Below, piece by piece: positions 19,143 to 39,551 of a stretch of DNA of 64,000 nucleotides. Positions within the stretch are counted from its first letter, which is position 1. Every line of letters starts with the position of its first letter. The notes beneath the pieces are model-generated. The model was not told where the DNA came from and made no database searches. It saw only the letters and a list, made by a program, of their open reading frames with translations. The stretch is from an uncultured Actinomycetota bacterium. Its GTDB lineage: Bacteria > Actinomycetota > Actinomycetes > Propionibacteriales > Nocardioidaceae. The stretch spans positions 55,915-119,914 of the forward strand of contig CAWEUL010000005.1 in NCBI GenBank assembly GCA_963812265.1. Direction: 5' to 3'. The position numbers were made by a program, and so were the translations under genes.

Positions 19143-20504
19143 TCACCCCACGTCTCGAAGGCTGACCTTGGCCAGGCGTTGGTCCAGGGCCTCGGCGACG
19201 GCCAGCGACTCGAGCAGCTTGGCGGCCCAGTCCGGAGGAGGGTCGGGGATCGGGTGCTTGGTGACCAGCTTGTCGATCGCCCGGTAGCGCTTGAGGATCT
19301 CGCTGAGGATCTCGGCGAGGGTGGGCGGCTTGGTGAGGTAGATCAAGGAGCCGCACCCGGCCGGCACGTCGCCGTACTGCGGGTCGTCGTAGGAGTTCGC
19401 ATACTCATAGGCGTCAGAGTAGTTGAACGCCTCGCGCACACTGACCCGCCCGTCGCTGTTGGCGTCCGGTTGGTGCCCGAGGCTCGCGCCGTACGCCGTA
19501 GCCGCGTTGACGGCCTCGAACCAGGTGCGCGCCCACTGGTCGAAGTGCGCGTCGCCGGCGCTCGGCTTGGTGGCGGGCACCGCGCTTGCGAACGAGGTCC
19601 GGCTCGCCGAGCTGTGGTCGAGGGTGGGTTGCAGGAACGCCCCCGAGTAGCACTGCTCCATGGTCACGACGAGCGTGCCGAACGGATCCATCCCGTCGAG
19701 CATCGTCGACCACTCCGCGGGGGTCAGCACCGATGAGTTGTCGACGCACAGTCCCGTCGTGGAGCCGTGGTTGTTGGTGTGGACGAACAGCAGGCTGTTC
19801 TCGTCCATGCGGGCGCTGATCTGGTCGATCGTCGTCTGGAGGTTCGCCTTGGTGGCCGAGGCGGTGACCTGCATCTGGTACGCCGTGTTGTCGCCGACCC
19901 AGGTGGCCATGTCGGCACCCGAGTAGTCGGTCGATCCGATGGTCCCGTCGTAGCAGAGCACATAGATGTTGGCGGCGGGGAACCCGAATCTGTGACGAAG
20001 GATGCGGTAGGCGAACTCGATGTCCTCCACGTGGCGACGATTGCTGATCTGGCTCGTCCACAGCAGCGCGAAGCGGTTGTCGTCCACCAGCCACGGGAAG
20101 TGGGCAACGGCATCCCAGTCAACCCGGTCATAGAGCGTCGGCAGCGTGGCGGACTGCTTGAGCGGCTCGTGGAAGTAGTCGGGCCTCAGCGCCCGGTCGG
20201 AGACCTCGGGAGGGAACTGCGCGAGCGCCGTGCCGAGCAGGGCGCCGTCGCGGATCGAGTGGAACAGGTAGCGGCACGGGTGGCCGAAGTTGGCACCGGG
20301 CAGCTGGTCCTCGAACACGACGATCGCGTCGTCCGGCACCTCGATCTCGCGGTCGACCAGCCGGAGCACGTGACCCCGGCGCAGGGCGCGCGGCACCACT
20401 CCCAGGTGATGAGCGGCGGCCCGGTCGGGGGTGAGCACCGCGAACGCCTCCGCCCGAGCACGCTCGACGATCTCTTTCCTGGGCTTCCTCAGATACTCGG
20501 CCAT
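19143..20504 (-). CDS. Clan CD cysteine peptidase (legumain C13/caspase-like) with N-terminal accessory domain and EF-hand-like loop
   Basis: HTNNHG...MEQCYSGAF His-Cys dyad in caspase/legumain spacing; ATKANL and YVLCYDG segments; DANSDGRVSVRE loop; AAGGAGG RBS; no signal peptide. Confidence 0.75.
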   Translation of the reverse strand: MAEYLRKPRKEIVERARAEAFAVLTPDRAAAHHLGVVPRALRRGHVLRLVDREIEVPDDAIVVFEDQLPGANFGHPCRYLFHSIRDGALLGTALAQFPPEVSDRALRPDYFHEPLKQSATLPTLYDRVDWDAVAHFPWLVDDNRFALLWTSQISNRRHVEDIEFAYRILRHRFGFPAANIYVLCYDGTIGSTDYSGADMATWVGDNTAYQMQVTASATKANLQTTIDQISARMDENSLLFVHTNNHGSTTGLCVDNSSVLTPAEWSTMLDGMDPFGTLVVTMEQCYSGAFLQPTLDHSSASRTSFASAVPATKPSAGDAHFDQWARTWFEAVNAATAYGASLGHQPDANSDGRVSVREAFNYSDAYEYANSYDDPQYGDVPAGCGSLIYLTKPPTLAEILSEILKRYRAIDKLVTKHPIPDPPPDWAAKLLESLAVAEALDQRLAKVSLRDVG

Positions 20505-20523
20505 GATTTCCCTCCTTGGTGTG

Positions 20524-20865
20524 TCACGGCGGTACGAGGTCAGCGATCCCGTCCGGGTCCGCAGCCACGACCCACGTTTCCGGGAGACGGCCGTAGGCCG
20601 GCGGCCGGTCGCTGTCGACGGTGAGCAGCAGCTCGCCCGAGTCCAGGTCGAGGAGCGCGTAGGTGCAGGGGTGCATCCAGTTCGCCTGCGGCATCTGGTC
20701 GCGGAAGACCAGGAGCGACCGGCCCCGGATCTGGTGGGACTCGCTGCCGAGACTGACGGCTCCCGCTTCCCGAACGGCGCGGTCGACGTAGACAACGACA
20801 CCTTCTGCTGCGCCGAAGGCGCGAACTGCCGCCTCGACTGCAACCTCGCTGTCGACCAGCGTCAT
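20524..20865 (-). CDS. 113-aa stand-alone paralogue of the peptidase N-terminal domain
   Basis: LVFRDQMPQANWMHPCTY versus VVFEDQLPGANFGHPCRY in the adjacent peptidase. Confidence 0.75.
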   Translation of the reverse strand: MTLVDSEVAVEAAVRAFGAAEGVVVYVDRAVREAGAVSLGSESHQIRGRSLLVFRDQMPQANWMHPCTYALLDLDSGELLLTVDSDRPPAYGRLPETWVVAADPDGIADLVPP

Positions 20866-21072
20866 CTGGGTCTCACCTGGATCTCGGTCCGGATGAAGGG
20901 AGCCGTGGAGTTCACCGCAGATACAGGACTTTCGCAGAGTACGGCTGATCGGACCGCGGGCACCACCGTCTCCCGGATCGTGCCCGGTCTCCCGTTGCCG
21001 TGTGCGCACGATGGTGGTTCACTGACGAGACCGGGGTTCGGGCCCTGTGGCCCGCTCCGGCGGGAGACGTCC

Positions 21073-24000
21073 ATGCGACGGAACACACGTACCCCTCAGC
21101 CAGGTCGCCGCTCGCGCCGAGCACCTGACCCGGGCAAGATCCTGCCGGAACCGCTCACCGCGATTCCGCCCGATGTGCTGGCGGCGATGCCGCGTCGGCC
21201 CTCACACCACTTCCGGGTGCTGCGCCCCGGTGACCTGGTCGTGCTCGACGTGCTCGGCTTCGGCCTCCAGTCGGCGGCTGACGACGGACAGCTGCATCTG
21301 GAACCCGCCGAGGACGACGCCTACCTCGAGGTGCGCTACACCTTCCAACACCTCCACGAAGCCGCGGAACCGGAGCCGAACGGACCCTCGCCGTTCCCGC
21401 CGACGCCCATCCCGGTGCCGGTTCGCGCCGCGAACGGCAGTCGCCTCGTGTACGACGTTCCCGACGGTGAGCAGATCCCCTACAACGTGAAGGGGGTGCT
21501 CGCCGCGATGTCGCGACTCCCGTTGCGGGTCGTGCCCCTGGCCACCCCGCGGCCCGGCCGCCGCCGGTTCACGCCCGGCGCGTTCGCCGACGCGCACACC
21601 AGCGTCGTCCTGCCAGGCGGGCTGCGCCTGCTCAACTCCGCCGAGGGGCTGGTCCTGGCTCCGCCGGCTCGGGGTGCGGTGTCGACGCCGGGCCGCCCCC
21701 GTGAGCTCCTGACGAACGCGCTCGCCCTGCGGACCGCCAGGCATCTGCTGGTCAGCCAGCGCGCGGTCGACCTGAGCGGGATCGCCCGGCCCGGCACCGC
21801 TCTCGGGCCAGGCGGGTTGACCTTCGAGCCGCCCGTGGTCCGACCTCGGCGGCAGCGCCCGCGAGCCCCGAAGCCCGATGAGACCGCCATCGAGGCGCCG
21901 TTCCGGCTGATCCTGTCGCCCAGCGTCCTGGGCGGGTTCACGCACGCGGTGAAACCTCGGCGGGTCGCGCCCGATCCCGCCCGAGCGCACGACCCTGAGC
22001 GGGTCGAGCTGTGGCACAGCCGGCTCGGGGTCCGCCGTGTCGACGAGGACGGCGTCGTGTCGGTCGACGAGACGACGGACCAGCAGAAGATCGTGAGAGC
22101 CGTCTGGACCCGCGACCTGGACAACCCGCCACCTGACCTGATCACGTTCCTGGCCTCGCTCACCGCCGAGGACCGTGAGGCGCTGGTGCGCGAGTCGGCA
22201 GACCCGGCGTACGCCACGCCGCAGCCGGTGTCCGCAGAGAAGCTGAGCCTGTCCTCGCTCGGGGCCTGGTTGGAGCTGCACGGCCGTTGGGACGACGGCC
22301 CCTACATCGACACCCCCCACATCGTCACCCGGTGGGACCACCAGGCGGCCAGCGGGCGGGACTTCTACGTGCGGGTGGACCAGCCGTACTACGTCTATCC
22401 GACCGGACACCAGGCCGTGCTCGTCACGATCACCGAGCGCAAGATCAAGGAGGTCATGAACCCGCAGGCCCGGCTCTACCAACGCAAGTTCCTGCTGTTC
22501 AAGGACCCGTTGCGCACCTACACGAGCCGCACCTGGCCGTTCACGCAGATCCGGATCCGGCCCCTCGCGACCCCCAACCTCGACTTCAAGCTGCCCCCGC
22601 CCACGCCGCCCGACGTCGCCGGCTCGGTGGGCTCCTGGGGGGACGATCTGTTCTGGCCGATGGTCGACGGCGCGCGCTACAAGTTCCTGCTCGACTGCCT
22701 CGACCACGAGGGCCGACGGGTGATCCTGAGGACACCTCTGCTTGCGGTGTCCGCGACGATGAACACCGGCGACGAGCGGGCGGCCGTCGAGAAGGCGTAC
22801 CGCGACGACGGCGACCACGTGGTGCCCGGCGACGGACAGAGTGTTGCCATGGGCCCGATCACGGTGCCCGGAGACACGGCCTACGAGACCGTGAACCTCG
22901 GCTTCGACGGGGCGGCCGAGCAAGGGACCTCCACACCCACGCTGGCCGATGCCGACATCGTGGTGCCGGCGATGCAGCACCTGGCGCCCAACGCCGACCA
23001 GGTGACGGTCTCCTACGCCGATGCCTACGCCGCATCGGGTTTCGCGGGAGCCAACGCCACCGCTCAGGTGCTGCTCAAGCTCACTACCCAGGCGAAGATC
23101 GAGTTCGGCAACGGCACCGACCGAGCCGGCGGGTTCGTCCAGCCGGACCTCCCCGTCGACGGGCTCTCTCGGGTCCTCGGCATCGTCGGCGACGTCGACT
23201 CCGTGGTCTCCCCGACGACTCCGGGGCTGGACTTCGACCCCGACAAGTTCCTGGCCAACGTGACCCCGATGCTTTTCGGGCTCTTCGAGCTCACCGACAT
23301 CCTGGCCGCCGCGGGACTGGACAAGGCCCCGCGGTTCGTGACCGAGCAGCTGGACAAGATCGCCGCCCTGTTGGCCGACGTCGACGACCTGGTCCCTGCC
23401 GTGGACCGGGCGGTCACCCGCCTACAAGACGACGCGGCGAACGCCGCCACCTCTGCCTTGAAGACGCAGGCCGAGCAGGCCCGCGCGGCGATCGCGGCTC
23501 TGCAGTCCGACCTGGACTCCACCGTCGCCGACCTGACGGCGGCACTCGACGCGCTGATGGCGCTGGACGCACCGAGCGACCTGCCGTCGGTCACCGCCGC
23601 GGTCGGGGGCCTGCTCGGTGACCTGTCGGGCTTCGTCGCCTCGCTCGACCAGTCGGTACGCCAGCTGCCGATGCCGGCCGCCGCGAAGGCCGACCTGGAA
23701 CGACTGACCGGTGCGCTGGGCCCGCTCCTGGACGTGGCCGCGGTCGCGGACACCCTCGAGGCGGTCGCGGACTTCGTCAACGGCATCGACCCGGCGAGCA
23801 TGACCATCCGGGCCCGCTATGACTGGCGCCCGACGATGAAGAACTTCCCCGACGTCATCGACCCTGCCCAGGCCCTGTTCTTCATGCCCAAGGACGGCTT
23901 CCAGCTGTCGGTCGAGGCCCGCGCCTCCGGCGCCACGGGAGTCGGCGTCGACGTGCTCGCGGAGCTGCGCGACTTCGGCCTCAACCTCTTCCTCGACCAG

Positions 24001-24831
24001 ACGCTGCTGACGATCCGGTTCGATCGGCTGGCGTTCCGCGCCGCCTCGGGTCGCAAACCCGAGGTCGACGTGGTCTTCGCCGGGATGGAGTGGAAAGGCG
24101 TTCTGGGGTTCATCGAGACCCTGCAACGGCTTATCCCGTTCGACGGCTTCTCCGACCCGCCGTACGTCGACGTCAGCACCGATGGCGTCACTGCCGGATT
24201 CGACCTTGCCCTCCCGAACGTCGCTGTCGGGGTGTTCAGCCTCGAGAACATCAGCCTCGGTGCCGACATCCGGGTCCCGTTCCTGGGCGACGCACTGACG
24301 GTCGGGTTCAACTTCTGCACCCGGGAGAAGCCGTTCAGGTTGACCGTCATGGCCATCGGCGGGGGTGGCTTCGTCGGGCTGCGGCTCTCGCCCAAGGGCC
24401 TGGTCATGCTCGAGATGGCACTCGAGGCGGGCTGTTCGCTGTCCCTCGACTTCGGGGTGGCGTCGGGCTCGGTGTCGGTCATGGTCGGCATCTACATGAA
24501 GTTGGAGGACGACAAGGGCAGCCTCACCGGCTACTTCCGGATCCGTGGCGAAGTGGACGTCCTCGGCCTCATCTCCGCCTCGATCACGCTCGAGCTGGCG
24601 CTGACCTACGACATGGACACCGGCAAGATGGTCGGTCGGGCCTCGATCACCGTCGAGGTCGAGGTGCTGTTCTTCTCGACCTCGGTCAAGATCAGCTGCG
24701 AACGCCGGCTCGCCGGCTCGAAGGGGGATCCCACCCTGGCCCAGATCCTCGGGGTGCCCGAGGACGGTACGCCACTCGGCGCCGTGCCGGCCGCCTGGAC
24801 CGACTACTGCGCCGCCTTCGCGGGAGCCTGA
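21073..24831 (+). CDS. Giant hypothetical protein A (1252 aa): beta-rich N-part, helical middle, Gly-rich beta C-terminus
   Basis: Uninterrupted ORF with strong GC3 bias; GGGAG RBS before ATG 21073; no family recognised. Confidence 0.8.
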   Translation: MRRNTRTPQPGRRSRRAPDPGKILPEPLTAIPPDVLAAMPRRPSHHFRVLRPGDLVVLDVLGFGLQSAADDGQLHLEPAEDDAYLEVRYTFQHLHEAAEPEPNGPSPFPPTPIPVPVRAANGSRLVYDVPDGEQIPYNVKGVLAAMSRLPLRVVPLATPRPGRRRFTPGAFADAHTSVVLPGGLRLLNSAEGLVLAPPARGAVSTPGRPRELLTNALALRTARHLLVSQRAVDLSGIARPGTALGPGGLTFEPPVVRPRRQRPRAPKPDETAIEAPFRLILSPSVLGGFTHAVKPRRVAPDPARAHDPERVELWHSRLGVRRVDEDGVVSVDETTDQQKIVRAVWTRDLDNPPPDLITFLASLTAEDREALVRESADPAYATPQPVSAEKLSLSSLGAWLELHGRWDDGPYIDTPHIVTRWDHQAASGRDFYVRVDQPYYVYPTGHQAVLVTITERKIKEVMNPQARLYQRKFLLFKDPLRTYTSRTWPFTQIRIRPLATPNLDFKLPPPTPPDVAGSVGSWGDDLFWPMVDGARYKFLLDCLDHEGRRVILRTPLLAVSATMNTGDERAAVEKAYRDDGDHVVPGDGQSVAMGPITVPGDTAYETVNLGFDGAAEQGTSTPTLADADIVVPAMQHLAPNADQVTVSYADAYAASGFAGANATAQVLLKLTTQAKIEFGNGTDRAGGFVQPDLPVDGLSRVLGIVGDVDSVVSPTTPGLDFDPDKFLANVTPMLFGLFELTDILAAAGLDKAPRFVTEQLDKIAALLADVDDLVPAVDRAVTRLQDDAANAATSALKTQAEQARAAIAALQSDLDSTVADLTAALDALMALDAPSDLPSVTAAVGGLLGDLSGFVASLDQSVRQLPMPAAAKADLERLTGALGPLLDVAAVADTLEAVADFVNGIDPASMTIRARYDWRPTMKNFPDVIDPAQALFFMPKDGFQLSVEARASGATGVGVDVLAELRDFGLNLFLDQTLLTIRFDRLAFRAASGRKPEVDVVFAGMEWKGVLGFIETLQRLIPFDGFSDPPYVDVSTDGVTAGFDLALPNVAVGVFSLENISLGADIRVPFLGDALTVGFNFCTREKPFRLTVMAIGGGGFVGLRLSPKGLVMLEMALEAGCSLSLDFGVASGSVSVMVGIYMKLEDDKGSLTGYFRIRGEVDVLGLISASITLELALTYDMDTGKMVGRASITVEVEVLFFSTSVKISCERRLAGSKGDPTLAQILGVPEDGTPLGAVPAAWTDYCAAFAGA

Positions 24832-24832
24832 C

Positions 24833-27800
24833 ATGGTCATCGAGTCCTTCCTGGTCACCGCTCTTCCCCGCACCGCGGATCCCGCTCGCGGCCAGCACGT
24901 GTCGCTGTTCGTCACTCACCGGCTCACCCCGGACGGGGGAGTGGGCGTGGTCGGAGACTTCCCCCACGTCGCGGAGTGGACCGCCGCGTTGGGGAGCGCC
25001 CGGATCGAGCTGCGCGGTCACGTCGGCGGCGTCGAGCACACGATCCCGACGACCGCCCGGCTGGGACGGTTGATCCCCACCCTGTGGCCGCAGGTGTTCC
25101 CGCCGAAGCTCAGTGTCCGGCCCTGGGTCACCGCGGATCCCGCCGCGGAGGAATGGCGCTCGTTCCCGGCCCACCGGATGCAGGCGCATGCGCTGCTGAC
25201 CCACGCCGCGGCAGTCTTCTCCTCGCCCGTCGGCTCGCCGGGAGTCAGCGGCAACGTGCTCACCGGACTCCTGCTCGACGCTCTCGGGCTCCGGCAGTTC
25301 GAGGGCCGGATCTCGATGGACCTGCTCTTCGACGAGGACTTCGGCCTCGACCGGCGGGTCACCGACCTGCTCAACGAGGTCACCGAGGGTGGCCGAACCT
25401 CGCCGAGTGGCGGCCAAGACCCGCTGCTGGCGCTCGCAGCGGACGTCCACCGAGCCCGGCTCTACTACGAGCGGCCGGCCGAGCAGCGCACGTACCGTGA
25501 CCAGCCCGACCCGCAGGCCAGTCCGCCCCCGGTCGTCACACCGGACCCCGACTTCCACGAACGGGCCTCGATGCTCGGCGACCTCTCCCCGCTGCTGCGG
25601 CGGCTGGGTCTGGTGGTCGACCTGCACATCGACGACCTCGGCGCGCTCGCCGGCGTCACGGAGATCAGCGCCTCGATCGTCGTCGCGGGGCTCGACAACC
25701 CGATCAAGAACCAGCCCAGGACCGCCTGCGTGGTGGACGGCCACGGATTCTGGGTGGCCTCGGCGAGCGGTGACCACCATCGTGGCCTGCTGCGCCTGGG
25801 CGATGAGGAGCGGTTCCGGGTGCTGGACCTCGACCCGGACGCCTCCGGCCTCAAGCTCGAGCAGTATGTGCGCAACCTGCCCCGGATGTCGGCCACCGAG
25901 GAGAACGGCGATCCCGCCAGCTCGGCCCCCGCGTCGCTGCGGGCAGCCGGGTTCGCGGTCGCCCGCGTGGATCGCGCCGACCAGCTGCACGCGCAGCTCG
26001 CCGGAGCGCCGGCCCAGGACCAGGCTCTGATCTCGGGAACCGCCGCGCCGTTGACGATCGAGAGCCTCGCCCGCGGTCTCCGCCTCGAGGTCTGGGACGA
26101 CGTCTCGACGCAGTGGCACTCCCTGCACCGTCGCCGGATCGACGTCGAGGTCGACGGCGCCGGCGCCGTGCTGTCCGACACCCCGGACACCGGTTTCCTC
26201 CAGGGTGCGGCGCTCACCCGGTCGGAGGATCCCGACGGGAACACGGTCGCCGCGCCGTACTACTCCCACGAGGTGCTCGCCGGCTGGGAGGGCTGGTCGC
26301 TGTCGGTGCCCAAGCCGGGCAAGGTGGTCATCGCGGATGGAGACGACCCGGTCGACGAGCCCGACCCGGACCCCGACCCGGTCCACCCAGTGGCCACCAC
26401 CAGCCATATCGAACAGCTCACACTGCCGTGGCTGCGCTACGGACGCAGCTACGCCTTCCGTGCCTGGACCGTCGATCTGGCCGGCAACAGCGCCCCCCAC
26501 CGGGTGGCCGGCCCCGACCCGGCGGACCCGGAGGGGCCCGAGACCCCGACGGCGGCACCCCGCCGCACGCCCCGGCGCACCGGACCCGACCCGCTGGACC
26601 TGGCACAGCGTGCCGCGGGTGGCCGGTTGGCGCAGCTTCCGCACGACGCCACCTCCACCGCCGCCGGGCCGGTGCGCGACGCCGTACGCGCGCGGCATCC
26701 GGTCGAGGAGCCCGGCCCCCGCCGCGGGTCCGGGGCCCGCGGGCTCGACCTGACCGAGGTCACCCCGACCGGCATCGCCGCGGTCGACGTGGTGGTCCGT
26801 GCCCGGACGTCCGAGCGGGCCGCGCGGGACGGCGTGCCGGGACCCACCAGGCGGGCCCGCATCGAGACGGCGTTCCACCAGGCGGCCGCCGAGGTGCCGC
26901 ACCTGATGGAGCGGACCGATGTCCACCTGGACCCGGCCCTCCTCGGGTCCGCGCTGGCCTCCGCGGCCCAGACCCAGGCAGACCTGCCGGCGCTCACCCT
27001 GCCGGTCCTCAGCGAGCTCCTGGACCTGGTCACGACACCGCGGCCCTTCCTGCGGTGGGACCCGGTCGTCGAGCCGGTCGTCGTGCCTCGGCACCCTTAC
27101 ACCGAAGCCGAGTCCCAGCTGACGCTCGTCATCCGGTCTGGTGTCGAGCATCCGGACGGCGACGATCCGTATGCCGTCAGCATCGTGGACCCCGGGGCCT
27201 ACAGCGCTCAGGCCAAGGCGGCGCACCCGGAGCTGGACCTGGAGTGGCGGGCCAGGTCCCAGAGGCATCTCGCTCCACCGAAGACCAGCCAGTACGAGGC
27301 GGAGCTGCACGGTCGCTTCGACGCCGCGTTCGGCAGCGCCGACCCGGCTGTGGTCCGCGCTGCGCTCGGGGTCGCCCTGCGTGAGTCGGGCACGCTCTTC
27401 GACCCGACGGTCGCCGACCTCGACCACCCGGGTGAGCGGCTCCCGCAACCTGGGATCGCGTTCCACTCGAGCCCGACGGCCGAGGTGCCGGACGTGACCG
27501 ATCCGGCCGACCTGGAGCGGGGCGCGGGCCTGACTCCGGGTCAGTACGTCGTGCACGGCACCGACGAGCTGACCCTTCCCTATCTGCCGGATCCGCTCGC
27601 GAGCCGGTTCTCGATGACCTTCCCGGACGCGGGCCAGGGTCACCATCTGTTCGGGCTGTGGGCGATCGAGGGGGTGACGCTGCCCTACGCCGGAAGCTGG
27701 CCGCAGTGGCAGCCCTATCGCATGGTGCTGGAGTCCGGACCCACTCTCGAAGCGCGCTCGACCAGCCAGGTGGTGCGGTTCCGAGTACCTCCGGGCGAGC

Positions 27801-29416
27801 AGCTGAGGATGAACCTGTCCTCGGCGATGCGGCGCCAGGACCTCGACCTGCTCGGACTCTGGCGCTCGCTGCCGGAGGCGATCCGCTCGCTCGACGTAGT
27901 GGCCGACGCCGCCGCCGACGGCTGGCTGTGGTGGCTTACGCCCGCCACTCCGGTGCGGCTCGTCCACGCGGTGCCCAAGCCCGTCGAGGTGCCCCGCACG
28001 ACCGTCCTGGTGCCGGTGCGCGTCGCCGACGGGACCGACGTACGGCTGTTCGGCGGCGTCGACCTGCACGGCCCGAGCACCGAACGACTCGACGTCGAGG
28101 CCGAGTGGACCGAGTGGGTGGACGACGTCAGCAAGCCGGCCGGGCCGGAGCAGGTCACGGTGAGCGCGAGGGCCGCCGCCACCTCCGTGGGCTACGACGA
28201 GGACCTCGTGGTGCTCGGAGGTGAGGAGGACTCCTCGATCCCGCTGCCCGACGGAACCACGCTGGCGGTGCACGCCGCCGTGCATCAGCTCGGCGACACC
28301 CGGCACCGGATGATCGACTACCGGATGCGGGCGACCACGCGGTACCGCGAGTACTTCGACCCGCGGGTGTTGCCGACCGTCGACGACGTCTCGGTTGTCG
28401 GCCCGGCGGCCCGGCTCGACGTCCCGAACACGGCCCGGCCGAACAAGCCGATCGTGCACGACGTGCTCCCGCTGTTCAGATGGAACGAGCTCACCGAGCC
28501 GGCGCAGCCGTTCGGCTTGCGACGGACCCGGCGCTCGGGCCTGCGGGTCTACCTGGAGCGGCCCTGGTTCTCCTCGGGGGACGGCGAGCTGCTGGGGCTG
28601 GCCCTGGCGCTCGGCAAGGACACCGCGACCGAGAACCATGTCTGCTTGTGGGGTGGCGACCCGGCCTACCTCCAGGCGGGGCCGGCGCACCGCTCGATCC
28701 TGCCGCTGAGCGACCTCACCCACCTCGCCGGGCTCGACGACCGCCCCGAGGGGGGCCGACCCGTGGGCACCCCGGCCGTGCAGACCCTGGTGGACGTTCC
28801 GGGCGAGCCTCCCGTGTGGGTGCTCGGCTATGAGCCCGTGTTCTCGCCGGAGCGTGGACTGTGGTTCGCCGACATCGCCCTCGATCCTGGGACCGCCATC
28901 TGGCCGTTCGTCCGGCTCGCGCTCACCAGGTTCCAGCCGAGCTCGGTTCCGGAGAAGCACCTGTCTCCGGTGGTGCTGACAGACTTCGTGCCCCTGCCTC
29001 CCGAGCGCACGGCCACCCTCACTCGGCCGGATCGTCGACACGCGCGGGTGATCGTCACTGGGCCGATCGGGGTGCCCGACATGGGCATCGAGGGGATGGG
29101 CTTCGTCGAGTCGCTCCTGGCGTCGCGCACGATGCGGGCCAGGCTGGAGCGTCGCGTGCCCGAGATCCCGTCGGACCTCGGCTGGGAGACCATCGCGTCG
29201 CTCGACCTGCCCATCCTGGGCCTCGAGGGCACGGTCGTGTCGTGGTCGGGCGAGCTGGAGCTGCCGAGTGCCGTGCCCCCGCGTCGGCCCGGCTCGAGCC
29301 AGACCTGGCGGATCGTCCTCGAGGAGTGGGAGACCCTTCCGTCGGACGCGACGGGCAGTGCACGTGGGCTCAGCACCCAGTCGCGCGTCGTCTACGCCGA
29401 CCACCTGCCGCTGTAG
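24833..29416 (+). CDS. Giant hypothetical protein B (1527 aa), likely tandem Ig/FN3-like beta domains
   Basis: Starts 1 nt after the stop of A; YAFRAWTVDLAGN and YRMRATTRY FN3-like strands; Pro/Arg-rich internal linker. Confidence 0.8.
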   Translation: MVIESFLVTALPRTADPARGQHVSLFVTHRLTPDGGVGVVGDFPHVAEWTAALGSARIELRGHVGGVEHTIPTTARLGRLIPTLWPQVFPPKLSVRPWVTADPAAEEWRSFPAHRMQAHALLTHAAAVFSSPVGSPGVSGNVLTGLLLDALGLRQFEGRISMDLLFDEDFGLDRRVTDLLNEVTEGGRTSPSGGQDPLLALAADVHRARLYYERPAEQRTYRDQPDPQASPPPVVTPDPDFHERASMLGDLSPLLRRLGLVVDLHIDDLGALAGVTEISASIVVAGLDNPIKNQPRTACVVDGHGFWVASASGDHHRGLLRLGDEERFRVLDLDPDASGLKLEQYVRNLPRMSATEENGDPASSAPASLRAAGFAVARVDRADQLHAQLAGAPAQDQALISGTAAPLTIESLARGLRLEVWDDVSTQWHSLHRRRIDVEVDGAGAVLSDTPDTGFLQGAALTRSEDPDGNTVAAPYYSHEVLAGWEGWSLSVPKPGKVVIADGDDPVDEPDPDPDPVHPVATTSHIEQLTLPWLRYGRSYAFRAWTVDLAGNSAPHRVAGPDPADPEGPETPTAAPRRTPRRTGPDPLDLAQRAAGGRLAQLPHDATSTAAGPVRDAVRARHPVEEPGPRRGSGARGLDLTEVTPTGIAAVDVVVRARTSERAARDGVPGPTRRARIETAFHQAAAEVPHLMERTDVHLDPALLGSALASAAQTQADLPALTLPVLSELLDLVTTPRPFLRWDPVVEPVVVPRHPYTEAESQLTLVIRSGVEHPDGDDPYAVSIVDPGAYSAQAKAAHPELDLEWRARSQRHLAPPKTSQYEAELHGRFDAAFGSADPAVVRAALGVALRESGTLFDPTVADLDHPGERLPQPGIAFHSSPTAEVPDVTDPADLERGAGLTPGQYVVHGTDELTLPYLPDPLASRFSMTFPDAGQGHHLFGLWAIEGVTLPYAGSWPQWQPYRMVLESGPTLEARSTSQVVRFRVPPGEQLRMNLSSAMRRQDLDLLGLWRSLPEAIRSLDVVADAAADGWLWWLTPATPVRLVHAVPKPVEVPRTTVLVPVRVADGTDVRLFGGVDLHGPSTERLDVEAEWTEWVDDVSKPAGPEQVTVSARAAATSVGYDEDLVVLGGEEDSSIPLPDGTTLAVHAAVHQLGDTRHRMIDYRMRATTRYREYFDPRVLPTVDDVSVVGPAARLDVPNTARPNKPIVHDVLPLFRWNELTEPAQPFGLRRTRRSGLRVYLERPWFSSGDGELLGLALALGKDTATENHVCLWGGDPAYLQAGPAHRSILPLSDLTHLAGLDDRPEGGRPVGTPAVQTLVDVPGEPPVWVLGYEPVFSPERGLWFADIALDPGTAIWPFVRLALTRFQPSSVPEKHLSPVVLTDFVPLPPERTATLTRPDRRHARVIVTGPIGVPDMGIEGMGFVESLLASRTMRARLERRVPEIPSDLGWETIASLDLPILGLEGTVVSWSGELELPSAVPPRRPGSSQTWRIVLEEWETLPSDATGSARGLSTQSRVVYADHLPL

Positions 29417-29441
29417 GGAAAGGCACCGCACCGTCGGCGGG

Positions 29442-30245
29442 TCAGCCTGCCGGGGCCACGCCGAGCCGGATCGCGGCCACCCCGCGGACTCCGGACGGGC
29501 CGACCACCGTCCGGGACCGACCGTCCGCGGCGACGGCGAGCGCCGCCGCGGCGACGCGCGAGGCACCCGCCGCCGCGCCGAAGCGGTCGGCGGCATCGGC
29601 CGCCCAGGAGGAGCGAACCTCCTCAGGCAGCTGGTCGAGGCTCGCTGCCGTCCAGCACCCCGTGATCGCCGCGAGGCTGCCGCCGCCCTCCGGGGCCGCG
29701 GACAGCCGGACCGCGGCCGCCCCCTCAGCAGCGTCGGGGTGGCCGGCCAGCACCGTCGGCTCCGCAGCGTCGGCCGCGATCGCGAGCACCCGGTCGGCGC
29801 GGCCGGCGCTCAGCAGCCCGCACGCCTCCACCACCGCCTCGAGTCCCGCGTGCTCCCCGCACAGGGTCAGCGCTGGACCGGTGCAGCCGAGCAGGGTGGC
29901 GACATAGCCCACGTGCACGCTGACCACCGTGTTGGGGAAGGCCATCGGGAAGACCCGGTCGGCACCGTGCTCGGCCGCCACCTGCACGAAGTCCGCGAGC
30001 GGGGCGACGCTGGAGCGCGCCGAGCCGAGGACGAGGGCGTCGCGAGGCCCGGTCTCCGTGCCTGGGGGCAGCACCCTGGCCGCCACGCTCATCGCCAGGC
30101 GGGCGGTCCGGGAGAGCGGTCGAAGGCCGCGCAGCACCAGCGCGTCGGCGAGCAGCTCGTCGGTGACCAGCCCCGGCCGCTCGAGCTCGGTGTCGACGAA
30201 ACCCTCCGGACCGAACACGGCCGCGGCGCTGACGTACGCCGTCAC
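29442..30245 (-). CDS. Ketosynthase N-terminal-like, non-catalytic partner (chain-length-factor-like)
   Basis: RVFPMAFPNTV and GPALTL..GLEAV thiolase-fold motifs; catalytic Cys and both His motifs absent; GTGA overlap with upstream KS. Confidence 0.75.
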   Translation of the reverse strand: MTAYVSAAAVFGPEGFVDTELERPGLVTDELLADALVLRGLRPLSRTARLAMSVAARVLPPGTETGPRDALVLGSARSSVAPLADFVQVAAEHGADRVFPMAFPNTVVSVHVGYVATLLGCTGPALTLCGEHAGLEAVVEACGLLSAGRADRVLAIAADAAEPTVLAGHPDAAEGAAAVRLSAAPEGGGSLAAITGCWTAASLDQLPEEVRSSWAADAADRFGAAAGASRVAAAALAVAADGRSRTVVGPSGVRGVAAIRLGVAPAG

Positions 30246-31426
30246 GAGAGCCTCCGGAAGATGGTGACGGCGTTGCAGCCGCCGAAGGCGTAGGCCTGGT
30301 TGACCACGACATCGCCATCCCATGCACGAGGCCCGTCGGTGATGACGTCCCAGTCGCAGTCGGGGTCCTGCTCACCGACGTGCCAGGTCGGGGGCAGCGT
30401 CCGCTCGCGCAGCGAGACCACCGCGAGCACCGCTTCGAGGGCGCTCGCCGCGCCCAGGCCGTGGCCGGTCAGCGACTTCACCGACGACGCCGGTGGCCGG
30501 TGGCCGGTGTACACCGCCCGCAGCGCGAGCACCTCGGCTCGGTCGTTGGCCGGCGTGCCGGTGCCGTGGGCGCTCACCCAGCCCACGTCGTCCGGCCGGA
30601 CCCGGGAGTCCTCGAGGGCGGCCAGCACCGCCCGAGCCGCGCCGGCCCCTTCGGGGTGCGGGCTGGTCGGATGGTGGGCGTCGCACGACAGGCCGGCGCC
30701 GGCGAGTTCCGCGAGAGGCTCGGCCCCGCGTGCCTCGGCGGCCGCCCGCTCCTCGATGAGCAGGAACGCCGCGCCCTCACCCAGAACCAGACCCTGCCGG
30801 TCGAGCCCGAACGGCCGGCACCCGTCCTCGGCCAGTGCCCCGAGCCGGGCGAAGCCGATCAGCGCCGTCCGGCTGAACGCGTCGACCCCACCGGCGAGCA
30901 CCCGGTCACTGCGGCCGGCTCGGACGTCGTCCAGCGCCCGGGTCAGGGCGAAGTTGCCGGCCGCACAGGCACCACCGACCGCGGAGACCCGACCCCCGAC
31001 GCCGAGCTCGTCGGCCACCGCGGCCGCCAGGTCCTCCGGGGTGCCGCCGAGCAGCTCGCGTGCCCGGCCCGGCGGCGGTGGCGCCTGAGCCGCCTCCGCG
31101 TCCGGCCAGGTGTCGATCCAGCTCGGCTCGCCCATGGTCGTCCCCACCACGAGATCGAGCCGGGCCGGGTCGAGGGCGGCTCCGGACAGCGCATCCGAGG
31201 CCGCGACCAACCCGAGCGCCGTCGCTCGACCCCGCAGCGGCCGGCCGTCGGGGTCGCGGACCGGGCCCGGCGCGTCCGGTCCCACCACCCGCGCGACCAG
31301 CCGGCCGTCGTCGTCGCGGGTGACCCCGGAACGACCGGTGAGCGCTGCCTGCCAGGTGTGGTCCGGGCCGCGACCCAGCGGGGAGATCACCCCGAGGGCG
31401 GTGACGACCGCGACCCGGTCGGACAC
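30242..31426 (-). CDS. Beta-ketoacyl-ACP synthase (FabF/KAS II-like)
   Basis: GACAAG (Cys), SAHGTGTPAND and GHGLGA (His, His), AYAFGGCNA. Confidence 0.9.
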   Translation of the reverse strand: MSDRVAVVTALGVISPLGRGPDHTWQAALTGRSGVTRDDDGRLVARVVGPDAPGPVRDPDGRPLRGRATALGLVAASDALSGAALDPARLDLVVGTTMGEPSWIDTWPDAEAAQAPPPPGRARELLGGTPEDLAAAVADELGVGGRVSAVGGACAAGNFALTRALDDVRAGRSDRVLAGGVDAFSRTALIGFARLGALAEDGCRPFGLDRQGLVLGEGAAFLLIEERAAAEARGAEPLAELAGAGLSCDAHHPTSPHPEGAGAARAVLAALEDSRVRPDDVGWVSAHGTGTPANDRAEVLALRAVYTGHRPPASSVKSLTGHGLGAASALEAVLAVVSLRERTLPPTWHVGEQDPDCDWDVITDGPRAWDGDVVVNQAYAFGGCNAVTIFRRLS

Positions 31427-31427
31427 C

Positions 31428-31667
31428 TCAGGCCTGCTTGTGACGCACGAGCTCGGCGAGCTGGCGGACGCTGTGAACCGTCTTCAGGTCGGTGTCGTCG
31501 AAGCGCACCCCGCACCGACGCTCCACGTGGACGGCGATCTCCATCGCGAGCAGCGAGTCGATGCCGGCATCCACGAAGGGCGTGTCGAGCCCGACCTCGT
31601 CCGGTGACAGCTCGGCGAGGTCGGCGACCAGTTCGCGGAGGTCGGCGTCCAGCTCGGTCTCGGTCAC
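31428..31667 (-). CDS. Acyl carrier protein
   Basis: GIDSLLAMEI phosphopantetheine site; acidic 79-aa protein. Confidence 0.9.
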   Translation of the reverse strand: MTETELDADLRELVADLAELSPDEVGLDTPFVDAGIDSLLAMEIAVHVERRCGVRFDDTDLKTVHSVRQLAELVRHKQA

Positions 31668-32653
31668 GGGACACCTTCCAGGTCGCGGATCGGGTCAGGG
31701 AGCCCATCGGGCAGGTGGTCGGGTGGCGGGGCGAAGACCGCGCGGGCGCGAACCAACGCGTCCTCGGCCCCGAGCAGGCTCGCCAGCGGATCTCCCACGA
31801 GACGGTACGCCGAGGCCTCCGGACTCGGCGTACCGTCGCTGAGCAGCATCCTGCTCAGCAGGTTTCCGACGTCCGGCGCAGGCCCGCGTAGGGCCGTGGC
31901 GAGGGCGAGCACGATCCGGGTGTTGTCGAGATGCAGCACCGGTCTCACCGCGCCGACGGCCGCCGCGGCCGACCCCTGGAGCACGACCTGCTCGGAGAAG
32001 CTGGTGGCGACCCCACGTCGACTCGCCGTCCAGCAGGTCAACGACAGCAGCAGGCCCAGCGGCTCGGACAGCCCCTCGGGACCGGGCGCCAGGTGTGCCG
32101 CTCGGAGCCCGCGGTAGGCCGCCCACCCGCTGGGTCGTCCGTGACCGAGGTAGACCGCGGCGCCGAGGCCGAGTCCCAGCGCCGTGACCAGGTCCTCCCG
32201 GGTGATCCGCTCGGCACCCCACCGCACGCTCGGCAGGTCGCCCAGGTGGTGCACGAGACGGTCCGAGAGCCGCTGGTAGCGCGGGCTGCGCTGGCCCAGG
32301 ACCGCCACCGGCGACACCTCGTGCCGGGTGGCCACCGCGGTGGCGGCCCGGACGAAGGGCGTGAGATCGCGAGCCGCCGGCAGCCAGCCCGCCGGAATCC
32401 AGCCGTGGTCCGCGGAGCGCACGAACGGCTGGCCGGTGACCGTTCCGGGCTTCCGGCGCCGGTCGCCCACGACCAGCACCCCGGCCGCCCCGCCGGGCAC
32501 CAGCCGCGGCCACTCGTCGTCGGCCGGCAGGTCGTCCCGGGCGATCACCCGCACCGACCGGGAGGCGGAGCGCAGCACGACGAGCGGCTCGAGCTGGGGC
32601 AGCCGCGAGCGCGGGGCGACCAGCACCCAGCACCCGTCCTCCTTGGTCGGCAT
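31664..32653 (-). CDS. Gingipain (peptidase C25)-like clan CD protein
   Basis: VYLGHG His motif, LSLTCWT Cys motif, SFSEQVV...AAAAVGA and terminal YRLVGDP, the order seen in C25 catalytic domains; no signal peptide. Confidence 0.65.
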   Translation of the reverse strand: MPTKEDGCWVLVAPRSRLPQLEPLVVLRSASRSVRVIARDDLPADDEWPRLVPGGAAGVLVVGDRRRKPGTVTGQPFVRSADHGWIPAGWLPAARDLTPFVRAATAVATRHEVSPVAVLGQRSPRYQRLSDRLVHHLGDLPSVRWGAERITREDLVTALGLGLGAAVYLGHGRPSGWAAYRGLRAAHLAPGPEGLSEPLGLLLSLTCWTASRRGVATSFSEQVVLQGSAAAAVGAVRPVLHLDNTRIVLALATALRGPAPDVGNLLSRMLLSDGTPSPEASAYRLVGDPLASLLGAEDALVRARAVFAPPPDHLPDGLPDPIRDLEGVP

Positions 32654-35445
32654 CAGGCCGCCCGCACCTCCACGATGTAGGGATCGAAGTGCACCGTGGA
32701 CTGGCCGGCCTTGTTGGTCGCGTAGAAGTCCTGGACGAGCTGGGCCTGCTGCTCGGGGTTGAACGCGTCGAGCCCGTCATCCTTGTGCGCGTCGAGACCG
32801 GCGTCGCCGCCGTAGTCGTAGCCGTCGGTGGCCTGGCCGATCAGCGCGTGGGCCATGTACGCCGGGCCGGTCTGCTCGCCCTGCCACACGTGCATCAGTT
32901 CGTGGATCAGCCACGACTCCTGAGCGGGGTCGGTGTCGCTGTAGCTGTCGGGGAAGTGGATGATCCGCATCGTGGTGACCCCGGTGTCGCCTCCGGTGTT
33001 GTTCGCAGCAGCCCACGACACGAACGAGCCGACGAACAGCCGGATGTCGTCCATCGGCAGCGTGTCCTCGTAGACGAGCGTGGCCCGCTGGCGCTCGCCT
33101 GTGGTCAGCGGGCGGAACACGCCGAAGACCTCGAGCAGCACCGCCACCACCGTGAAGATCGCGCCGCCCACGATCTCGATCAGCCCGTCGAGGCACTCCT
33201 GGAGGCCGGCGCCGGCATCCTTGAGCGACTGCACCAGGTACCTCTTGTCGGCGTCGTTGAGCGTGAACGCCGGCTCGAGGATGTCCTTGACGGTCTTCCC
33301 GAGGTCGCGCATCGCCTGCACGAACAGGGCTCCGGCGTTCTGCGGTTGCTGGGCGATCGCGACCAGCAGCTGGGCCAGGCTGACTCCGAACGCGAGCGCG
33401 GCCTGCAGGACCGCCACGACGGCGCTCAGTGCCTTCCCCACCGCCCAGAGGATGATCTGGACGACGGCCAGGCCCGCTCTCAGCAGGCCGGTGACGACGC
33501 TGATGAGCCCGGGGATCAGGTCCTTGGCGACCCAGGTCAGCAGATAGCTCACCGAGTTCTTCAGCCGCACCCACACCTCACCGAGCAGGTCGAGCGCCTT
33601 CGCGCCCACGGCCTTGGCCCAGTCGATGACGTCGCGCAGCCTGCTGCCGATGTCCTCGGCGATCCGCACGATCATCTCGAGCAGGTCGGCGCCCTTCTTC
33701 AGCGCCCAGTCCAGTGCCTCGTCGAGCGCCTTGCGGACGAACCGGATCGCCAGCACGGCTTCGCGCATCAACGCGTCGATGGCGTTCCCGGCCTGGGTGA
33801 GAACCCAGTCCAGGACCTCGCCGACCTTGCGTCCGGCGTCGAGGATGCCGGTGATCATCCTGCGCAACAGGTAGTAGGTGCCCTTGGCGGCCTCCTCGAG
33901 GAGCTGGGCGAGCTTGATGCCCGCGGCGAGCGCCGCCTCGACGAACCGACGCGCGGTCCTGTACGTGAACGCGACGACCGCCTGCACGATCTCGACCAGT
34001 GCCTTCCCTGCGGCGATCAGGGCCTTGATGACGTCCCGGATCGCGGAGGTCACCAGCTTGGCCACCTCCTTGACGATCCGTAGGACGGCGTACCCGAGCT
34101 CGAGCGCCGCCTCCACGATGCGTTTGATCGCTCTCAGCCCGGCCTGGGCGAGCTCGTGGACGAGTTCCCCGAGCGTCCGGCCGATCTGCAGGAGCGCCTT
34201 GGCCACGGCCTTCGCGACGGCCACCGCGGCGTTCGCGATGAGGTGGCACAGCTCGACGAAGCCGCTCGCGATCTCGGCGATCGCCCGGACCACCTCGCTG
34301 AGAAGGTGCGCGGCCGCGCTCAGGGTGGCGTTGACGATGTCCGCGATCGCCCGGCCGAGCGCGATCAGCGCCTTCACGGTGTCGCGCAGCAGCGTGAGGG
34401 TGTACTGCGCGGCGGCGGCCAGCAGGTCGCCGATCTGACGACCGAGGGAGAGTAGTGCGCCGACCACGGACTGAAGCACACCAAGGGCGGCGCGGGCGGC
34501 CTGCTGGAGCAGGTTGCCGACGGACTTGCCGATCGCGATCAGCGCCTCGACAACTCGTCGTACGGTGTCGGCGACCTGGGTGGCGAGCCAGGAGAGCAGC
34601 TCGCTGAGCTGGTGTCCCAGGTTGTCGATGGCCCGCAGCAGGTCGACCAGCGCCTGCCCGACGAACCGTGCCGCCTGCTCGAGGATCTGGAACATCGCCT
34701 TCCCGACGTTGCGGATCGCCGAGATCATGTTGCGCACGAAGTCGTAGCCGTAGGCGACAGCGGCCTCGAGGAGGTCGAAGATCGTCTGGCCGGCGTTGAG
34801 CAGTGCCTGGGCGAGGTTGGTGAGCTTGTCGACGGTCCAGTTGACGACGGCGGAGATCGCGTCGACGAGGTCCTCGAACGCGTGGACGACCGCGTCGACC
34901 ACGTTCTCGATCACCTCCTTGATCTCGTCGACCACGTCCTCGATGAACTCGACGACCGCATCGTCGTGGTCGGGCTCGCCCTCGTCGTCGAGCGGCGGCG
35001 CCGCGCTCGTGCGGATCTGGGCGCCCATGGTGGCGACGTAGGTCCACACCTCCTCGAGGGCCGCCTTGTCCTTGCGGCCGGCCGGAGTGAGGACGTAGTC
35101 CTTCATCAGCGCGCGCCCGTGCGCCGCCGGCAGCTCACCGATGGCGTGCACGATCCACTGGTCGTGATGGGCGTCGCGGTAGCCCTTGATCAGGGTGCGT
35201 CGCTCGTCGGCGTCCCGCGAGAGCGCCACCGCCTGGAACACCTGGCGATGCTGGTCGATCGACGGCAGGGTCGTGGCGTACGCCGTCGCGAGTCTCCGGG
35301 CCGCAGGCCTCGAGGTCTTGTACATCTGGCGGTAGACCGGGCCGACCTCGCTCGGCGTCGGCTTGATCTCTGCCACCCGAGCGTTGACCACACCCATATC
35401 GGTCGGCAACGTGCCCAAGGCGTCTAGTACGCGCTGTCCAGCCAT
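32653..35445 (-). CDS. 930-aa helical-repeat protein with C-terminal HExxH (DUF4157-like) metallopeptidase domain
   Basis: RPLTTGERQRA...WLIHELMHVWQ...FNPEQQAQLV; long amphipathic repeat region; GGGAGG RBS before ATG 35445. Confidence 0.75.
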   Translation of the reverse strand: MAGQRVLDALGTLPTDMGVVNARVAEIKPTPSEVGPVYRQMYKTSRPAARRLATAYATTLPSIDQHRQVFQAVALSRDADERRTLIKGYRDAHHDQWIVHAIGELPAAHGRALMKDYVLTPAGRKDKAALEEVWTYVATMGAQIRTSAAPPLDDEGEPDHDDAVVEFIEDVVDEIKEVIENVVDAVVHAFEDLVDAISAVVNWTVDKLTNLAQALLNAGQTIFDLLEAAVAYGYDFVRNMISAIRNVGKAMFQILEQAARFVGQALVDLLRAIDNLGHQLSELLSWLATQVADTVRRVVEALIAIGKSVGNLLQQAARAALGVLQSVVGALLSLGRQIGDLLAAAAQYTLTLLRDTVKALIALGRAIADIVNATLSAAAHLLSEVVRAIAEIASGFVELCHLIANAAVAVAKAVAKALLQIGRTLGELVHELAQAGLRAIKRIVEAALELGYAVLRIVKEVAKLVTSAIRDVIKALIAAGKALVEIVQAVVAFTYRTARRFVEAALAAGIKLAQLLEEAAKGTYYLLRRMITGILDAGRKVGEVLDWVLTQAGNAIDALMREAVLAIRFVRKALDEALDWALKKGADLLEMIVRIAEDIGSRLRDVIDWAKAVGAKALDLLGEVWVRLKNSVSYLLTWVAKDLIPGLISVVTGLLRAGLAVVQIILWAVGKALSAVVAVLQAALAFGVSLAQLLVAIAQQPQNAGALFVQAMRDLGKTVKDILEPAFTLNDADKRYLVQSLKDAGAGLQECLDGLIEIVGGAIFTVVAVLLEVFGVFRPLTTGERQRATLVYEDTLPMDDIRLFVGSFVSWAAANNTGGDTGVTTMRIIHFPDSYSDTDPAQESWLIHELMHVWQGEQTGPAYMAHALIGQATDGYDYGGDAGLDAHKDDGLDAFNPEQQAQLVQDFYATNKAGQSTVHFDPYIVEVRAA
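33140..34815 (-). repeat. Protein-level tandem repeat, about 19 units of 29 aa
   Basis: VEALIAIGKSVGNLLQQAARAALGVLQSV / VGALLSLGRQIGDLLAAAAQYTLTLLRDT / VKALIALGRAIADIVNATLSAAAHLLSEV and further units; Gly usually at position 8. Confidence 0.8.
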
Positions 35446-38406: not shown

Positions 38407-38434
38407 CAGGAACCGCCTCCTCCGGCGTCGGCGC

Positions 38435-39394: not shown

Positions 39395-39551
39395 GATGTG
39401 TTTCTCCCCCGTGAAATGCGCGGCCCCCGCGGCCACGCGGCCCCAGGAGGAGGTCAGGGGAGCGGCTGGTGATACACGGCGAAGCCCCGGTCGGTCGGCC
39501 CGTGACGGTCGCCGCGCCAGGAACAACCGGAACGGCTGAGACGATGGGGCC

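Follow-up and report, generated by a model that had tools for sequence, protein, structure and literature searches.

Nine genes lie packed within 16.3 kb of a 64,000-nucleotide stretch of DNA from an uncultured bacterium of the Nocardioidaceae (contig CAWEUL010000005.1, positions 55,915 to 119,914 of the forward strand; hereafter the window), and the question they raise is whether they constitute one system or several. A preliminary description, made from the sequence alone, had grouped all nine as a candidate system of proteases, giant proteins and acyl-carrier enzymes. In this study, we undertook a computational comparison of the locus with its relatives in other genomes and metagenomes, and we conclude with high confidence that the 16.3 kb comprises three autonomous, separately inherited cassettes that are juxtaposed in a variable region of an actinobacterial chromosome, not one system. 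The single nine-gene system was not borne out: with flanks of up to 10 kb considered, genes of the other units were found at none of the 76 sampled loci with the giant pair, none of the 68 with the C25 operon (the C25 gene itself is present at 67 of these) and none of the five with the C13 pair.

The window is ~69% G+C, and its genes were therefore selected by their third-position GC content (GC3), together with a reading of the translations of its open reading frames (ORFs). The GC3 frame analysis and the ORF listing returned the nine genes on the strands and with the spacings originally described, as follows (aa, amino acids; KS, ketosynthase; ACP, acyl carrier protein):

19143-20504, minus strand: g1, C13-like peptidase, 453 aa, cassette 1
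20524-20865, minus strand: g2, 113-aa protein, cassette 1
20866-21072: divergent intergenic region of 207 bp between cassettes 1 and 2
21073-24831, plus strand: giant A, 1252 aa, cassette 2
24833-29416, plus strand: giant B, 1527 aa, cassette 2
29417-29441: convergent gap of 25 bp between giant B and the KS-like partner
29442-30245, minus strand: KS-beta (chain-length-factor-like) partner, 267 aa, GTG start at 30245, cassette 3
30242-31426, minus strand: FabF-like KS, 394 aa, cassette 3
31428-31667, minus strand: ACP, 79 aa, cassette 3
31664-32653, minus strand: g8, C25-like peptidase, 329 aa, cassette 3
32653-35445, minus strand: g9, repeat/HExxH protein, 930 aa, cassette 3

The enzyme families that had been named from the sequence were recovered in Pfam, namely two clan-CD cysteine peptidases and one HExxH protein (Peptidase_C13, Peptidase_C25 and a marginal eCIS_core/DUF4157 match) and the trio of KS, KS-like protein and ACP (ketoacyl-synt N and C, Ketoacyl-synt_2 and PP-binding). 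The stated absence of signal peptides also held, with the qualification that hydrophobic helices occur in g9 around residues 655-710 and 763-790. When the nine proteins were searched against Pfam, NCBIfam, PADLOC and PHROGs, nothing was returned for A, B and g2 except one weak PHROG match of A. The arrangement of the genes is not an assembly chimera, since three of its four junctions (between the flanking alcohol dehydrogenase (ADH)-like gene and g1, between g2 and A, and between g9 and the flanking rhodanese gene) are bridged by contigs of independent soil metagenomes; the junction between B and the KS partner was not clearly bridged.

The preliminary description had itself named a failure of the three units to co-occur in other genomes as grounds for abandoning the one-system reading, and as the units were never together in the sampled loci, that reading is refuted on those grounds. 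The closest relatives of the giant pair, the C13 pair and the C25 operon have 88%, 86% and 78-80% identity to their counterparts in the window, and their contexts differ for each. When the nine window proteins were compared by tblastn with the 76 giant-pair loci, none of the seven genes other than A and B was found in any of them, all-vs-all clustering of the ORFs of these loci identified no additional conserved neighbor, and a Pfam census of 107 ORFs flanking A-B identified no family in more than three loci. The nearest A-B locus, from an Actinomycetota metagenome-assembled genome (MAG; L003, 88% amino acid identity), has only the ADH gene, A and B in common with the window; the slot of g1 and g2 (5280-6000, minus strand) is taken by a different, unrelated gene and nothing similar lies 3' of B. 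The presence of a different gene between ADH and A in L003 indicates that this position is a variable insertion site. Likewise, the C25-operon loci had no giant A or B, no C13 gene and no g2, and the five further g2-g1 loci, which are from Actinotalea, Nocardia, a Burkholderiaceae MAG and two soil contigs (86% identity), have unrelated flanks in each case. The adjacency of the three cassettes is thus peculiar to the lineage of the window. The gene content of the cassettes, their linkage and coupling, their conserved catalytic residues and their independence of one another are all matters of direct observation.

If the nine genes were nevertheless one integrated system, its peptidases and zincin would process the giants and its ACP and KS would lipidate them. 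The tight packing, with gaps of only 207 and 25 bp, is what such a system would lead one to expect, as is the lack of a characterized function for all nine genes. We consider it extremely improbable, in view of the lack of co-occurrence in the 76, 68 and 5 other loci, nearest relatives included, and of each cassette being complete and conserved alone in unrelated contexts.

Cassette 2, the pair of giant genes, is widespread. A scan of one genome per species identified 296 loci with B, and 76 of these, each taken with flanks of up to 10 kb, make up the sample described above. The B family comprises at least 264 homologous clusters of constant length, and that of A has 4061 cluster representatives (50% identity) at E ≤ 1e-3 and 1845 at E ≤ 1e-30. 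The A-B loci are from Actinomycetota, Acidobacteriota, Gemmatimonadota, Myxococcota and Methylomirabilota, as well as from Alpha-, Beta- and Gammaproteobacteria and one cyanobacterial MAG, and more distant pairs are present on plasmids of the Bacillus cereus group, Streptomyces and Rhizobium and on the chromid of Cupriavidus metallidurans CH34. Based on tblastn, A is directly 5' of B in every sampled locus with room for it. In the window, B starts 1 nt after the stop codon of A (whose own start is supported by a 1252-aa ortholog in L003), and at almost every locus the end of A is only a few bases away from the B start codon; the two genes are translationally coupled. The B protein of the window has 55–58% identity to proteins of Acidobacteriota and only 34–37% to those of Arthrobacter, Kribbella, Mycobacterium and Nocardia, a pattern at odds with taxonomy that points to transfer between phyla. 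Relatives of A and B were named "hypothetical protein" in their source records where these were checked. No phage structural module was recognized in the pair: the PHROG match of A was weak (E 0.004), B had none, and the C-terminal 793 residues of B had no tblastn match in 50,697 phage records.

Individual A-B loci had further features. Directly 5' of A in one of them (L001, 2839-5928, plus strand) is a gene for a 1030-aa protein whose N-terminus is a strong DUF4157/eCIS_core match (E 5e-25) and which also has a Tectonin domain; DUF4157 as a systematic neighbor of A-B was rejected, as it was found in L001 and L041 only. On pBwiPL1-1, a conjugative megaplasmid of Bacillus wiedmannii (L088, 3896-11199 and 13461-20196), the A-B pair is near three more large "hypothetical" genes. 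The A-like protein of Bacillus (1003 aa) is without the long helical bundle of actinobacterial A.

The mobility of A-B bears on a second alternative to the three-cassette reading, in which the locus is a conflict or defense hotspot where three independent, analogous accessory cassettes have gathered at one variable site, in the manner of defense islands. The replacement of the gene in the slot between ADH and giant A in the closest relative would fit a hotspot, and so would the transfer of A-B between phyla, its presence on megaplasmids and the occurrence of TIR, WD40 or DUF4157 proteins beside a few A-B pairs. In addition, clan-CD peptidases are common in conflict systems. Nonetheless, we consider a hotspot of this kind unlikely. 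The matches of the nine proteins in PADLOC-DB v2 were to the coiled-coil protein ZorA only; they fell on the helical repeats of g9 (E 4e-8) and were not accompanied by ZorB, ZorC or ZorD, and no ATPase or nuclease domain was found in any of them. Around the cassettes no integrase or transposase was identified, and searches for tRNA genes, flanking direct or inverted repeats and promoter or terminator consensus sequences returned nothing above chance; no sigma-70-like consensus site was seen in the 207-bp divergent region. Elsewhere, the neighbors of all three cassettes are mostly housekeeping genes.

For the reading of three separate cassettes that we favor, the next question is what each of them does. 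Structural models of the giants were obtained with AlphaFold2 (AF2) for residues 54-1252 of A and 328-1527 of B, with predicted local distance difference test (pLDDT) scores of 79.6 and 75.5, respectively. In the models, A is predicted to have beta-rich N-terminal domains, a five-helix bundle (~760-905) and, at the C-terminus, a strongly conserved meander whose long antiparallel beta-strands are mostly 12–18 residues in length, with a GGGG motif. B has a conserved N-terminal part followed by a variable low-complexity linker (~560-735), a helical region and then a beta-sandwich array. A profile search of the PDB had no match for B, and what it returned for A was no more than coiled-coil noise. 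With Foldseek, the best PDB match to the model of A was MTP (E 3.6e-5), followed by ApoB, vitellogenin and porins (E 1e-3 to 1e-2), all with template modeling (TM) scores of 0.08–0.11, which for MTP was over 1133 columns; matches of the A model in BFVD had TM scores of ≤0.09. The model of B matched generic complement, alpha-2-macroglobulin and FnIII arrays with TM scores of ≤0.12. We do not take these resemblances, which are to generic folds at TM ≤ 0.12, to indicate homology, and profile–profile comparison ruled out A and B being paralogs of each other.

Hints of an envelope role came from domains attached to relatives of A. Some of these (P0362, P0366, P0377, P0401, P0408, P0425, P0427 and P0452) have an N-terminal extension of ~500 aa that opens with a twin-arginine (Tat)-like signal, one (P0332) has a LysM domain, and another (P0416) has N-terminal repeats with "KLFMAWKG...DxxIW.S.YDG..W" motifs that have the look of a lectin-type beta-propeller and no Pfam match. 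In one locus (L149, 8558-21835), an A with a Tat signal is followed by a B without a signal. The A and B of the window have neither a signal nor a transmembrane segment. From the signals and the LysM and lectin-like domains of A relatives, together with the adjacent B that is without a signal, we infer a pre-assembled A-B complex located at or beyond the cell envelope. In the lineages with Tat signals, these features suggest that the complex is exported in folded form. Our best guess, which we hold with low confidence, is that the role of A-B at or beyond the envelope would be one of binding, of forming pores or of handling lipids. The pair in L149 is itself flanked by two unannotated genes for signal-peptide proteins (405 and 668 aa), and this locus may represent a four-gene variant of A-B.

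A more specific possibility is that A-B is a secreted binary toxin or pore-former, in which A would be a membrane-inserting beta-barrel and B a receptor-binding array of beta-sandwiches. The long amphipathic beta-strands at the C-terminus of A, which match porin-like barrels in Foldseek, would suit the first role and the Ig-like array of B the second, and homologous pairs on megaplasmids of the Bacillus cereus group and lectin-like and LysM fusions in relatives point in the same direction. The actinobacterial and Bacillus copies, however, have no signal peptide, there was no similarity to known toxin families, and the structural matches are all at TM ≤ 0.12, and we regard a toxin as unlikely.

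The five genes of cassette 3 are all joined by GTGA overlaps or 1-nt spacers: the start of KS-beta overlaps the stop of KS and that of the ACP gene the stop of the C25 gene in this way, ACP and KS are separated by 1 nt, and a GGAGG sequence precedes the start of the KS partner. The cassette is a translationally coupled operon. Its KS matches PF00109 and PF02801 and has an intact Cys154-His287-His322 triad that is kept in 15–16 of 16 homologs. KS-beta, which is truncated, matches PF13723 (Ketoacyl-synt_2; 29.5 bits, cut-off 25) and is without the Cys-His-His triad, positions that are not conserved in 20 homologs either. The ACP matches PF00550 (PP-binding, 64.8 bits) with a DSL phosphopantetheine site, and DS[LMIVA] was present in all 38 homologs. 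By these residues, the three proteins have the make-up of a KS, chain-length factor (CLF) and ACP of type II fatty-acid synthase (FAS) or polyketide synthase (PKS). Their scores against specific NCBIfam models were all below cut-off (fabF 265 vs 494 and AmcF 211 vs 325, the best two for the KS; AmcB 26 vs 80).

The peptidase g8 has 64 homologous clusters and scored 30.8 bits against PF01364 (cut-off 23), with the match limited to profile positions 219-373. Its dyad of H171 (in GHG) and C207 (in TC) is invariant in 56 homologs, and by score and dyad together the protein belongs to family C25 of clan CD. Its only relatives in the PDB were gingipain R (E 0.002) and PorU (E 0.011). It has no N-terminal hydrophobic segment and no further Pfam domain, its host is one of the Actinomycetota, and an assignment to the type IX secretion system (T9SS) was not upheld.

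The protein encoded beside it, g9, has an N-terminal domain of ~165 aa followed by 21 tandem helical repeats of 29 residues in perfect register, with autocorrelation peaks at 29, 58, 87 and 116 residues and beyond. At its C-terminus is a zincin-like HExxH domain with a marginal match to eCIS_core/DUF4157 (23.1 bits, cut-off 22); when a bona fide DUF4157 domain was used as the jackhmmer seed, g9 was not retrieved. The HExxH motif and the 29-aa period were both found in all 34 full-length g9 homologs. The repeat region also matched Phasin_2 (31.9 bits, above cut-off) and tape-measure PHROGs (down to 1.5e-19), similarities that probably reflect helical-repeat composition and periodicity. Structural families of the extracellular contractile injection system (eCIS) were absent from the 29 proteins encoded between 13 and 50 kb of the window, and g9 was not assigned to an eCIS.

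The C25 neighborhoods that were compared came from Nocardioides caldifontis, a Jatrophihabitans MAG, a Myxococcales MAG and metagenome contigs, with 60 more loci from metagenome contigs. A g9 homolog was 5' of the C25 gene in all 37 loci with room for one, and the repeat protein and the peptidase are the invariant core of cassette 3. Of 41 loci, 33 had a KS gene within 3 kb 3' of the C25 gene, and in 28 of these the two shared a strand; in the Myxococcales-type arrangement ACP and KS are convergent, not co-directional. In two long-read contigs from ENA (L080, 9789-10981; L153, 5533-10001), cassette 3 genes are split into several ORFs or falsely fused, which is most likely due to assembly frameshift errors, not biology. 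A supposed C25+ACP fusion protein (P0133) was rejected as a frameshift artefact of this kind, as it corresponds to two tblastn frames in L080. Directly 3' of cassette 3 in the metagenome contig L082 (13514-19774, plus strand) are two unannotated genes for Ala/Gln-rich, helical proteins of 428 and 1657 aa. These were considered as possible relatives of A and B and found to be unrelated to either giant.

The preliminary description had proposed a large protein that is processed and possibly acyl-modified. For the nine genes together this did not stand; for cassette 3 alone it is a live hypothesis, given the linkage across phyla of the repeat/HExxH protein, the peptidase and the ACP and KS. In the mechanism that we find likeliest, the KS, its inactive partner and their dedicated ACP would build an ACP-bound acyl or beta-ketoacyl chain, with loading and reduction supplied by housekeeping FAS enzymes. 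The C25-like Cys/His peptidase would process the co-expressed 930-aa amphipathic repeat protein, either as plain maturation or by a sortase-like transfer. Every biochemical step in this and the other mechanisms set out here is one that we infer. Possibly, cassette 3 is a protein-lipidation machine. In the T9SS, PorU, itself of family C25, cleaves a protein that it then transfers to a lipid-linked acceptor, and a PorU-like C25 transpeptidase might join the cleaved g9 to the chain on the cassette's own ACP, giving as product a covalently lipid-anchored amphipathic scaffold bearing a zincin domain. This version is very unlikely in our estimate. Should the product of the ACP go onto a protein, it would represent a new route of protein lipidation.

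The same acyl enzymes could instead belong to a small natural-product cluster, in which KS, CLF and ACP make a free lipid or polyene and the peptidase and repeat protein serve in export, scaffolding or self-protection and not as substrates. We regard this as possible, albeit doubtful. A KS with an intact triad, a CLF-like partner (of PF13723, which is seen in aryl-polyene-type clusters) and a dedicated ACP are what such a cluster would need, and there is partial similarity to the AmcF and AmcB models of cispentacin. However, in the seven annotated loci no acyltransferase (AT), ketoreductase (KR), dehydratase (DH), cyclase, thioesterase (TE), adenylating enzyme or exporter was found in cassette 3 or conserved beside it, and the cassette was not classed as a biosynthetic cluster. 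The NCBIfam scores noted above, all under their cut-offs, also speak against a natural product, as does the invariant g9-g8 core, which occurs without a KS in 8 of 41 loci.

Cassette 1 is the smallest of the three. Its peptidase, g1, scored 38.2 bits against PF01650 (Peptidase_C13, cut-off 22.8) and has a catalytic dyad of H246 (in HG) and C285 (in EQCYSG) that is invariant or nearly so in 107 homologs; a score above the gathering threshold together with the His-Gly/Cys dyad places it in family C13 of clan CD. Its homologs form 160 clusters and carry the NCBI name "C13 family peptidase", and in distant relatives the peptidase is fused to FG-GAP/VCBS repeats or to a roadblock/LC7 domain. The N-terminal domain of g1, ~100 aa with a conserved HPC motif, has 35% identity over 63 aa to g2 (BLASTP, E 3e-10). 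Based on this similarity, g2, which had no match in Pfam, NCBIfam or PHROG, is a stand-alone paralog of the domain, and its gene is immediately 5' of the C13 gene in each of the Actinotalea, Nocardia, Burkholderiaceae MAG and two soil loci. Most likely, cassette 1 would pair an enzyme with its own regulator or with a partner akin to a pro-domain.

The genes on either side of the locus are ordinary (ADH-like, PadR, ABC ATPase, rhodanese, shikimate-kinase-like and cupin). Upstream in the window, the N-terminal end of the Amidohydro_1 profile is matched by an ORF at 14929-15624 and its C-terminal end by an adjacent ORF at 14416-14778, both on the minus strand; together (14416-15624) they resemble a single amidohydrolase gene that a frameshift has broken in two, whether as a pseudogene or through an error in the long-read assembly. 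A protease pair is present 3 kb beyond the locus (38137-39682, minus strand), consisting of a trypsin-like peptidase (415 aa, PF13365) and then a CarboxypepD_reg/Big_1 protein (89 aa). Genes for wax-ester synthase/diacylglycerol acyltransferase (DGAT) are located a few kb from cassette 3 in the window (40867-42225, plus strand) and in L083 (4640-5539), and there is also one near the C13 pair in L085 (12089-13486). Actinobacteria have many such genes and their proximity may be due to chance, but deserves mention beside the phasin-like repeats of g9.

Several considerations weigh against our conclusions. Co-occurrence was assessed only within 10 kb of each gene, and the sample for cassette 1 was only five other loci. 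The contiguity of three orphan mobile cassettes with almost no spacer between them is unusual, and a hotspot with shared biology could account for it. The C25 loci with no adjacent KS (8 of 41) are mostly distant Gram-negative members, and this absence means that the acyl module may be accessory to cassette 3, not integral. The mechanisms are drawn, with low confidence, from models and sequence matches that are weak resemblances: TM scores of ≤0.12, PDB E values of 0.002–0.011 and an eCIS_core score 1 bit over the cut-off. A search for RNA data returned DNA metagenome runs only.

The enzymes of the locus are of known families, namely C13, C25, a FabF-like KS, a CLF-like partner, an ACP and a DUF4157-like zincin. 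For none of the three cassettes did Pfam, NCBIfam, PADLOC, PHROGs or the PDB supply a named system, so that the lack of a match reported for the locus as a whole holds for each cassette separately. A literature search that was limited and partly ill-targeted returned nothing relevant on DUF4157 with ACP, C25 with KS, ACP and caspase, bacterial C13 peptidases or the CH34 pair. Two conserved modules, the giant A-B pair and the cassette 3 operon, are without a description in the libraries searched. The former, which occurs in 296 or more species-level genomes across many phyla, is a large piece of protein dark matter with the behavior of a mobile unit of two genes. In the latter, a peptidase and a zincin with 29-residue repeats are combined with a private KS, CLF and ACP, a combination that is to our knowledge unknown in fatty-acid, polyketide or protease biology. 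It is on cassettes 2 and 3, not on a nine-gene super-system, that the merit of follow-up rests, and both modules are testable as they have cultured carriers (Nocardioides caldifontis, Kribbella lupini, Arthrobacter spp., Cupriavidus metallidurans CH34 and Bacillus wiedmannii).

Parts of the locus can be compared with characterized systems. Peptidase g1 is similar to the C13 enzymes legumain and the GPI8 transamidase in its match to PF01650 and its retained His-Gly...Cys dyad. It differs from them in that legumains in the PDB match it at E 0.28 only, it has no signal peptide, and its N-terminus bears an additional domain with the HPC motif, of which a second copy is encoded separately by the 113-aa g2. 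For giant A, the likeness to MTP, ApoB, vitellogenin and outer-membrane beta-barrels, the top Foldseek matches to its model, is one of large beta-sheets only, with TM scores of 0.08–0.11 and no sequence signal. The long amphipathic helical repeats of g9 are reminiscent of phasins, apolipophorin-III and tape-measure proteins, whereas its context has no polyhydroxyalkanoate (PHA) synthase or phage tail, and we know of no family of these kinds with a strict array of 21 x 29 residues. The HExxH motif of g9 is in a domain of ~80 aa that reaches the Pfam cut-off for DUF4157/eCIS_core, although the domain is C-terminal, not N-terminal, and no sheath, tube or baseplate genes are within 15 kb. Peptidase g8 shares with gingipains R and K and PorU a score above the PF01364 cut-off and the clan-CD His/Cys dyad; in contrast to them, it has only 329 aa, is without a signal peptide, Ig-like domain or C-terminal T9SS domain, and is found in Actinomycetota that have no T9SS, always with the repeat/HExxH protein and usually with ACP and KS. 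Lastly, cassette 3 resembles FabF/AcpP, KasA/AcpM, the aryl-polyene ApeO/ApeC type and cispentacin AmcF/AmcG/AmcB in having an active KS, a truncated partner and a DSL-bearing ACP in one operon. Its scores are far under the NCBIfam equivalog cut-offs, and where FAS and PKS systems would have an AT, KR, DH, cyclase, TE or exporter, cassette 3 has a peptidase and a repeat protein linked to its KS and ACP.

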